64,000 bases of DNA from Leucoraja erinacea (taxonomy: Eukaryota): the NCBI RefSeq assembly GCF_028641065.1, contig NC_073384.1, forward strand, positions 39,246,001 through 39,310,000. Reading direction: 5' to 3'. The notes beneath the pieces are model-generated. The model did not search any database, was not told the DNA's origin, and saw nothing but the letters and a program-made list of their open reading frames with translations. Positions 22,987 through 23,160 of this stretch are shown piece after piece; within the stretch, counting starts at the first letter, position 1, and each line of letters starts with the position of its first letter. The position numbers were made by a program, and so were the translations under genes.

Positions 22987-23160
22987 AATACTCCGGGAAG
23001 ACCAGACCTTACCTTGCAGCTCATTTTTTTTGATGGACAAGAGGCACTGGAATATTGGTCTGAGAACGACTCACTTTATGGTTCTCGACATTTGGCAAAT
23101 AAGATGGAGAAGATTGCACACCCACCTGGTTCAACAAAAACTAACCAACTGCATGCAATT
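22987..23160 (+). CDS. qpct: QPCT-like exon 4 (DGQEA instead of DGEEA)
   Basis: tag acceptor, gtaagt donor; [58 protein letters not shown]; 174 nt. Confidence 0.95.

Follow-up and report, generated by a model that had tools for sequence, protein, structure and literature searches.

A conserved elasmobranch paralogue of glutaminyl cyclase with Gln at the general-base position, a candidate secreted substrate trap

The window analyzed here, a stretch of 64,000 nucleotides of the Leucoraja erinacea genome, contains a qpct-like gene in which the codon for the general-base Glu of glutaminyl cyclases (QCs; human E201), which cap the ends of peptides with pyroglutamate, is replaced by one for Gln. 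A preliminary description of the window proposed an intact gene for a candidate secreted pseudoenzyme. The locus therefore raises the question of whether this replacement represents an error, the decay of a duplicate, or a maintained feature of the protein, and, in the last case, what the protein might do.

Joining the exons confirmed the proposed gene structure. The gene spans 23 kb on the plus strand of the window, and its seven exons encode an intact 360-aa frame, with all six introns bounded by GT-AG. Exon 1 (12666..12782) encodes the ATG and residues 1–39, including a hydrophobic N-terminus that forms a helix (residues 5–23) in the structural model; a putative signal peptide is predicted from these two features, and several orthologue gene models begin at an internal Met. 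Exon 2 (16480..16626) encodes residues 40–88 with an N-glycosylation sequon at N60, which is also present in the tandem twin described below. Exon 3 (19915..20196; residues 89–182) contributes C138, H139, K143, K147 (codon 20089..20091), D159 (codon 20125..20127), S160, and C164. Exon 4 (22987..23160; residues 183–240) includes the segment ATT TTT TTT GAT GGA CAA GAG GCA, translated as IFFDGQEA and forming part of the motif DGQEALEYW. Here, the CAA codon for Gln200 (23038..23040), which is GAA in the twin, is followed by the codons for E201 (23041..23043) and L203-E204 (23047..23052). Exon 5 (27907..28006) carries LLDLIG and D247 (human D248), exon 6 (30649..30765) carries the DDH motif with D304 (human D305), and exon 7 (35799..35944) carries H318, F324, W328, and H329 (codon 35846..35848), followed by the stop codon. 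The predicted protein was identical to database entry P0002, a glutaminyl-peptide cyclotransferase-like protein of L. erinacea; databases label the copies with Gln (Q copies) as ordinary enzymes.

The protein belongs to the QPCT family. Its single Pfam domain was PF04389 (Peptidase_M28), with a score of 112.8 bits against a cut-off of 21.3. Alignment with PDB chains placed residue 200 at human E201, as the preliminary description had stated, and the top PDB sequence match was a human chain that itself reads DGQEA and is common to 2AFU (titled "in complex with glutamine t-butyl ester") and 2ZEH (titled "mutant E201Q"). The AlphaFold2 model based on 148 sequences, which replaced one from a shallower input (19 sequences; pLDDT 62.5), showed a pLDDT of 92.5 and matched human QC with a root mean square deviation of ~1.2 Å and a TM score of 0.88–0.89.

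Roles of the QC residues are described in PMC10435661, PMC5837995, and PMC11312887; the former presents D159 as a Zn ligand and S160, D248, D305, and H319 of the human enzyme as a hydrogen-bond network. All four network residues were present in the skate protein. Across 25 Q proteins, the Zn ligands D159, E201, and H329 (human D159, E202, and H330) were kept without exception, as were H139, K143, S160, W206, D247, D304, D305, H306, F324, W328, and both Cys residues, whereas H318 was altered in two. Retention of the Zn ligands, both Cys residues, LLDLIG, and DDH, noted earlier for the skate protein, was thus borne out. Compared with the features of an active QC (EC 2.3.2.5), the sequence retains the Zn-ligand residues and the hydrogen-bond network and carries Gln200 in place of the general-base Glu. 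It combines an enzyme fold that has lost a catalytic residue with a gene that is maintained and expressed and is no pseudogene, as expected of a pseudoenzyme. The position equivalent to human H319 is Gln or Asn in P0003 (Pristis) and P0010 (Mobula hypostoma), and the catalytic network is thereby eroded further in batoids other than skates. Residue 160 is Ala in several canonical copies with Glu (E copies; e.g., P0126, P0015, P0135, P0128, and P0009).

Gln200 is no sequencing error, because three further skate sequences (P0121, P0122, and P0123) share it. DNA contigs of X1, X3, and X6 covered exon 4 with 2, 5, and 15 differing letters, respectively, and position 23038 was not among the rows listed, beyond which 1013 more exist. 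P0123 is a full-length intron-free Q protein with one residue different, recorded on three Logan contigs, none longer than 3129 bases; since the gene spans far more than this, P0123 implies a spliced mRNA. The twin was found on 14 and 16 Logan contigs as compared with three for the Q copy, which hints at a narrower expression of the latter. No matching RNA data sets were listed for the query, which is mostly intronic. In RNA run X7 from a related organism (~6/100 read), the repeat-free bins bearing exons had zero depth, with conserved reads possibly filtered.

The preliminary description had suggested looking for a DGEEA qpct paralogue nearby, and such a gene was found in tandem. The canonical twin (P0124) is located on the same strand at C8:39211382-39231006 and ends 27.7 kb before the ATG of the query gene. 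The twins are 72% identical, and the sizes of exons 2–7 match. Exon searches of the genome (G000) identified at least three QC-family loci, namely the query gene, its twin, and a DGEEA locus on C38. The C38 locus is presumably QPCTL, the Golgi isoQC of the same family. As it is just 55–58% identical to the query exons, it was rejected as the parent of the Q copy. Neither the 164 kb surrounding the gene nor the G000 searches yielded a third qpct copy, the counts being lower bounds. In the phylogenetic tree, the query grouped with elasmobranch and chimaera qpct with support of 100/99. This grouping, together with the tandem position, the matching exon sizes, and the separate QPCTL on C38, indicates descent from qpct rather than qpctl.

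The 5′ regions of the twins also have in common a block of ~190 bases before each ATG (12443..12630 on the plus strand of the window, against G000:C8:39211130-39211313; local alignment score, 121.5), which contains a TGACGTAA element at 12530. This block was the best non-self match of 327 tiles of 500 bases (the runner-up scored 80) and is likely a conserved promoter core. Together with the tandem arrangement, it suggests overlapping expression of the two genes, as would suit a regulator or scaffold, in which the dead copy contacts the active twin or another protein. Trypanosomatid prozyme-type dead paralogues, which act on active partners, provide a precedent for such a role. Nevertheless, a regulator would leave unexplained both the invariant pocket with its Zn ligands and the tolerance of Gln alone at position 200, and we regard it as improbable.

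To describe the distribution of Gln200 in the QC family, we used an alignment of 479 proteins with D-G at positions 198–199, obtained from 497 fetched proteins after 18, mostly fragments, were dropped. Residue 200 was Glu in 454 proteins and Gln in 25, and all of the latter were elasmobranch second copies, with isoforms counted. Glu200 was present in 146 of 146 aligned representatives of 50%-identity clusters (150 taken). No more Q fragments were found among 120 short proteins, 114 of which read EE and six of which could not be parsed by the motif. Within this protein set, a second tandem qpct copy was confined to elasmobranchs. A DGQEA copy was retrieved from 17 of 22 elasmobranch species, all 17 of which also have a DGEEA copy, and the accession numbers of the two copies within a species were often adjacent. 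These species comprised three skates, Pristis, Mobula hypostoma, Mustelus, two Scyliorhinus, Carcharodon, Cetorhinus, Stegostoma, two Chiloscyllium, Rhincodon, Hemiscyllium, Heterodontus, and Pristiophorus.

Fixation of DGQEA in orthologues, which the preliminary description had left to be checked, was supported by the presence of Gln in 18 of 19 elasmobranch second copies, and its occurrence in 17 species contradicts both a private variant of this skate and a set of orthologues that all carry Glu. The exception was Heptranchias, both copies of which, including the second, have Glu. Only E copies were found among the proteins retrieved from Hypanus, Hemitrygon, Narcine, and Mobula birostris, and a single E copy was retrieved from chimaera. 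In lineages without a retrieved Q copy, this copy is either dispensable or unannotated. The lineage-wide QC variant with a replaced catalytic base is real. Mobula has two DGEEA qpct copies (P0141, P0147, P0144, and P0145), reflecting a further duplication, and M. hypostoma has the Q copy as well.

We estimated selection between the skate twins by the Nei–Gojobori method. For the mature part of this one pair, dS was 1.14 and dN was 0.165, giving a ratio of 0.145 (bootstrap, 0.09–0.21), and this value, far below 1, supports a maintained gene, a point for which a dN/dS estimate had been proposed earlier. With chimaera as the outgroup, 37 changes were assigned to the skate Q copy and 11 to its twin (p = 0.0002); dN/dS on the Q-copy lineage was ~0.2, a rough value that assumes equal synonymous rates. 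Across 16 species, the mean p-distance was 0.184 for second copies and 0.103 for first copies, and in 117 of 120 non-independent species pairs, the second copy was the faster one. The Q copy is under purifying selection, yet evolves approximately two to three times faster than its twin. Nine outgroups showed no variation at 127 sites; 31 of these sites varied somewhere in the 18 Q rows and 21 in the 25 E rows, and position 200 was the sole site altered in every Q row and in none of the E rows. Because invariance among Q rows is common by itself (156 of 297 sites), the argument for constraint at position 200 is made by comparison with the twin and with the family. A copy drifting without function would not preserve one residue.

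These data bear on the view that the gene is a decaying duplicate or an assembly error. GAA to CAA is a single base change, the Q copy is faster than its twin, and it was not retrieved from four batoid species, all of which would be compatible with decay. However, the same Gln in open frames of 17 shark and ray species, the low dN/dS at a high dS, the conserved promoter block, and the spliced product on record largely refute this explanation, to which we assign only a very slight probability.

The history of the Q copies was more complex than their distribution. In a quick tree of 53 rows, the Q copies fell into batoid, galeomorph, and Pristiophorus groups; the Pristiophorus Q copy paired with its own E twin, and the two Heptranchias copies likewise paired with each other. 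AU tests, for which 30 of these 53 rows were used without column 200 and residues 1–39, rejected a single clade uniting all Q copies (p = 0.007) and a clade of these with the second Heptranchias copy (p = 0.011), whereas a clade of batoid and galeomorph Q copies was not rejected (p = 0.10). A single origin of Gln200 hinges on gene conversion, since the AU test rejects one Q clade. The Heptranchias twins differ at eight of 263 sites in exons 2, 3, 5, 6, and 7, as compared with seven of 58 sites in exon 4, and the second copy retains K147, E204, and T209, all three of which are also present in the Heterodontus Q copy. The pair is likely a gene-conversion mosaic in which Glu was restored. Divergence between the shark twins peaks at residues 200–215 (0.27, as compared with 0.07 among first copies). 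In the skate, dS was between 0.94 and 1.52 in each of the exons, and recent gene conversion has therefore not occurred in this species. The most likely history is a single duplication on the elasmobranch stem with patchy gene conversion thereafter, and independent repeated origins of Gln are less likely. The age of the shark–ray split is roughly 250–300 million years. The Heptranchias copies (P0161 and P0007) are in tandem and nearly identical outside exon 1 and the 3′ portion of exon 4.

Gln200 was accompanied by other changes. Residue 147 is Lys or Arg in 19 of 19 second copies and Glu in 24 of 25 first copies. Residue 203 is Leu, Ile, or Met in 17 of 18 Q rows and residue 204 is Glu in 16 of 18, where all 25 first copies have Phe-Gln. 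We take residues 147, 203, and 204 to lie on flexible loops at the pocket entrance. The further pocket changes named in the preliminary description, CHHDS and NDDHD, were seen in the skate protein but form no part of this signature: CHHDS in place of CHYDS also occurs in the canonical twin, other E copies, and chimaera, and N303 and D307, which flank DDH, are confined to skates. In all ten tabulated galeomorph Q copies (e.g., P0004, P0005, and P0013), G313D occurs with S330R/K, beside the Zn-ligand His; both are absent from batoid Q copies.

The main rival to loss of catalysis is a neofunctionalized enzyme in which Gln200, K/R147, and E204 serve another Zn-dependent reaction or other substrates (Glu-selective cyclization or amide/acyl transfer), or an adaptation to urea/TMAO body fluid. 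The retention of the proton-transfer network (S160, D247, and D304) in all 25 Q proteins, the concentration of shark twin divergence around the replaced residue, and the accelerated skate Q copy would agree with new chemistry. In contrast, E204 was rejected as an obligatory substitute base, as the Mobula and Pristiophorus Q copies have Gln204 and this site is highly variable in active QCs. Moreover, in M28-type enzymes, Glu-to-Gln replacement at the general base abolishes turnover. We therefore consider new chemistry unlikely.

We somewhat favor a reading in which the protein is secreted and, largely without catalysis, binds peptides that carry a free N-terminal Gln or Glu, thereby acting as a natural substrate trap. 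Binding without turnover is proposed because the fixed Gln lies in an otherwise complete pocket. Gln has the same shape as Glu and cannot take a proton, and Huang is said to have reported in 2005 and 2008 that human E201Q is nearly inactive and still binds substrate. By analogy with this mutant, the Q copy would have lost QC activity; Zn binding and secretion are predicted from the retained ligands and the N-terminus. The side-chain carbonyl of the substrate would dock on Zn, and Gln200 would be unable to accept the proton from the α-amine, such that cyclization would stall and the peptide would be held. In PMC5837995, E201 is described as activating the substrate α-amino group and D248 as promoting ammonia loss. 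The charge reversal of E147K/R and the changes at 203/204 near the entrance would likely retune which peptides bind. The Q copy might then carry or buffer uncapped peptides, or serve as their decoy, with the twin and QPCTL providing normal activity. The kept D247, D304, and S160, which take part in proton transfer in QC, would fit retained chemistry as well as binding.

A more specific form of the trap is doubtful: elasmobranchs may have fixed, and shielded from conversion, a secreted Zn-pocket trap for uncapped Gln/Glu peptides that carries or neutralizes hormones or chemokines, with Glu-to-Gln replacement having perhaps up to three origins (batoids, galeomorphs, and sawshark). Alternatively, a slow yet real glutaminyl cyclase could have been selected for residual activity, such as timed capping in one secretion. 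This alternative agrees with the retention of all other QC residues and with the tolerance of Glu in the second Heptranchias copy; however, the active twin and QPCTL are present in the same genome, all 454 of the other QCs have Glu at this position, and we judge a slow enzyme to be correspondingly hard to credit.

We compared the putative trap with known systems. Compared with vertebrate QPCT, it is ~59% identical to human QC, adopts the same modeled fold, and retains the Zn ligands, Cys pair, and pocket residues, and it differs in Gln at the general base, K/R147, L, I, or M203 with E204, and faster evolution. The engineered human E201Q protein (2ZEH and 2AFU, the latter by its title holding the glutamine ester) has the same DGQEA motif but is a laboratory mutant, whereas the skate form is natural and kept in 17 species under purifying selection. 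To our knowledge, E201Q is otherwise known just as a laboratory mutant. The M28 fold is also reused without canonical catalysis in transferrin receptors, nicastrin, and nicalin; these are membrane proteins that have lost most metal ligands, whereas the Q copy is predicted to be soluble, with complete metal-site residues and one isosteric change.

No description of the elasmobranch Q copy was present among the top literature matches listed, and no paper among the matches combined glutaminyl cyclase with E201Q; PMC5241404, PMC13402818, and PMC10653852 contributed nothing further on E201Q. The variant is apparently undescribed. A natural, conserved E201Q points either to new chemistry or to a role of the QC pocket that needs binding without turnover. 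Both QC and isoQC are targets for drugs (Alzheimer's disease and CD47), a field in which a non-catalytic role of the fold is relevant. The twins, 72% identical with a one-residue difference at the base, and the second Heptranchias copy with Glu offer a direct experimental pair.

Other features of the window included a full-length Tc1/Sleeping Beauty-like element at approximately 9716–11335 on the plus strand, ~1.3 kb upstream of the qpct-like ATG. It contains a stop-free frame of 341 codons (10085–11110) encoding a transposase (HTH_SB, HTH_Tnp_Tc3_2, and DDE_3) and inverted repeats of ~215 bases with 93% identity, and it looks young. LINE-type reverse-transcriptase frames were located on the minus strand at 1289–2779 (496 codons) and 39345–40124 (259 codons). 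A frame at 56284–56979 on the plus strand contains a single CCCH zinc finger barely above the Pfam cut-off, which presumably resembles the ZFP36/TTP family; this frame may be a decayed retrocopy.
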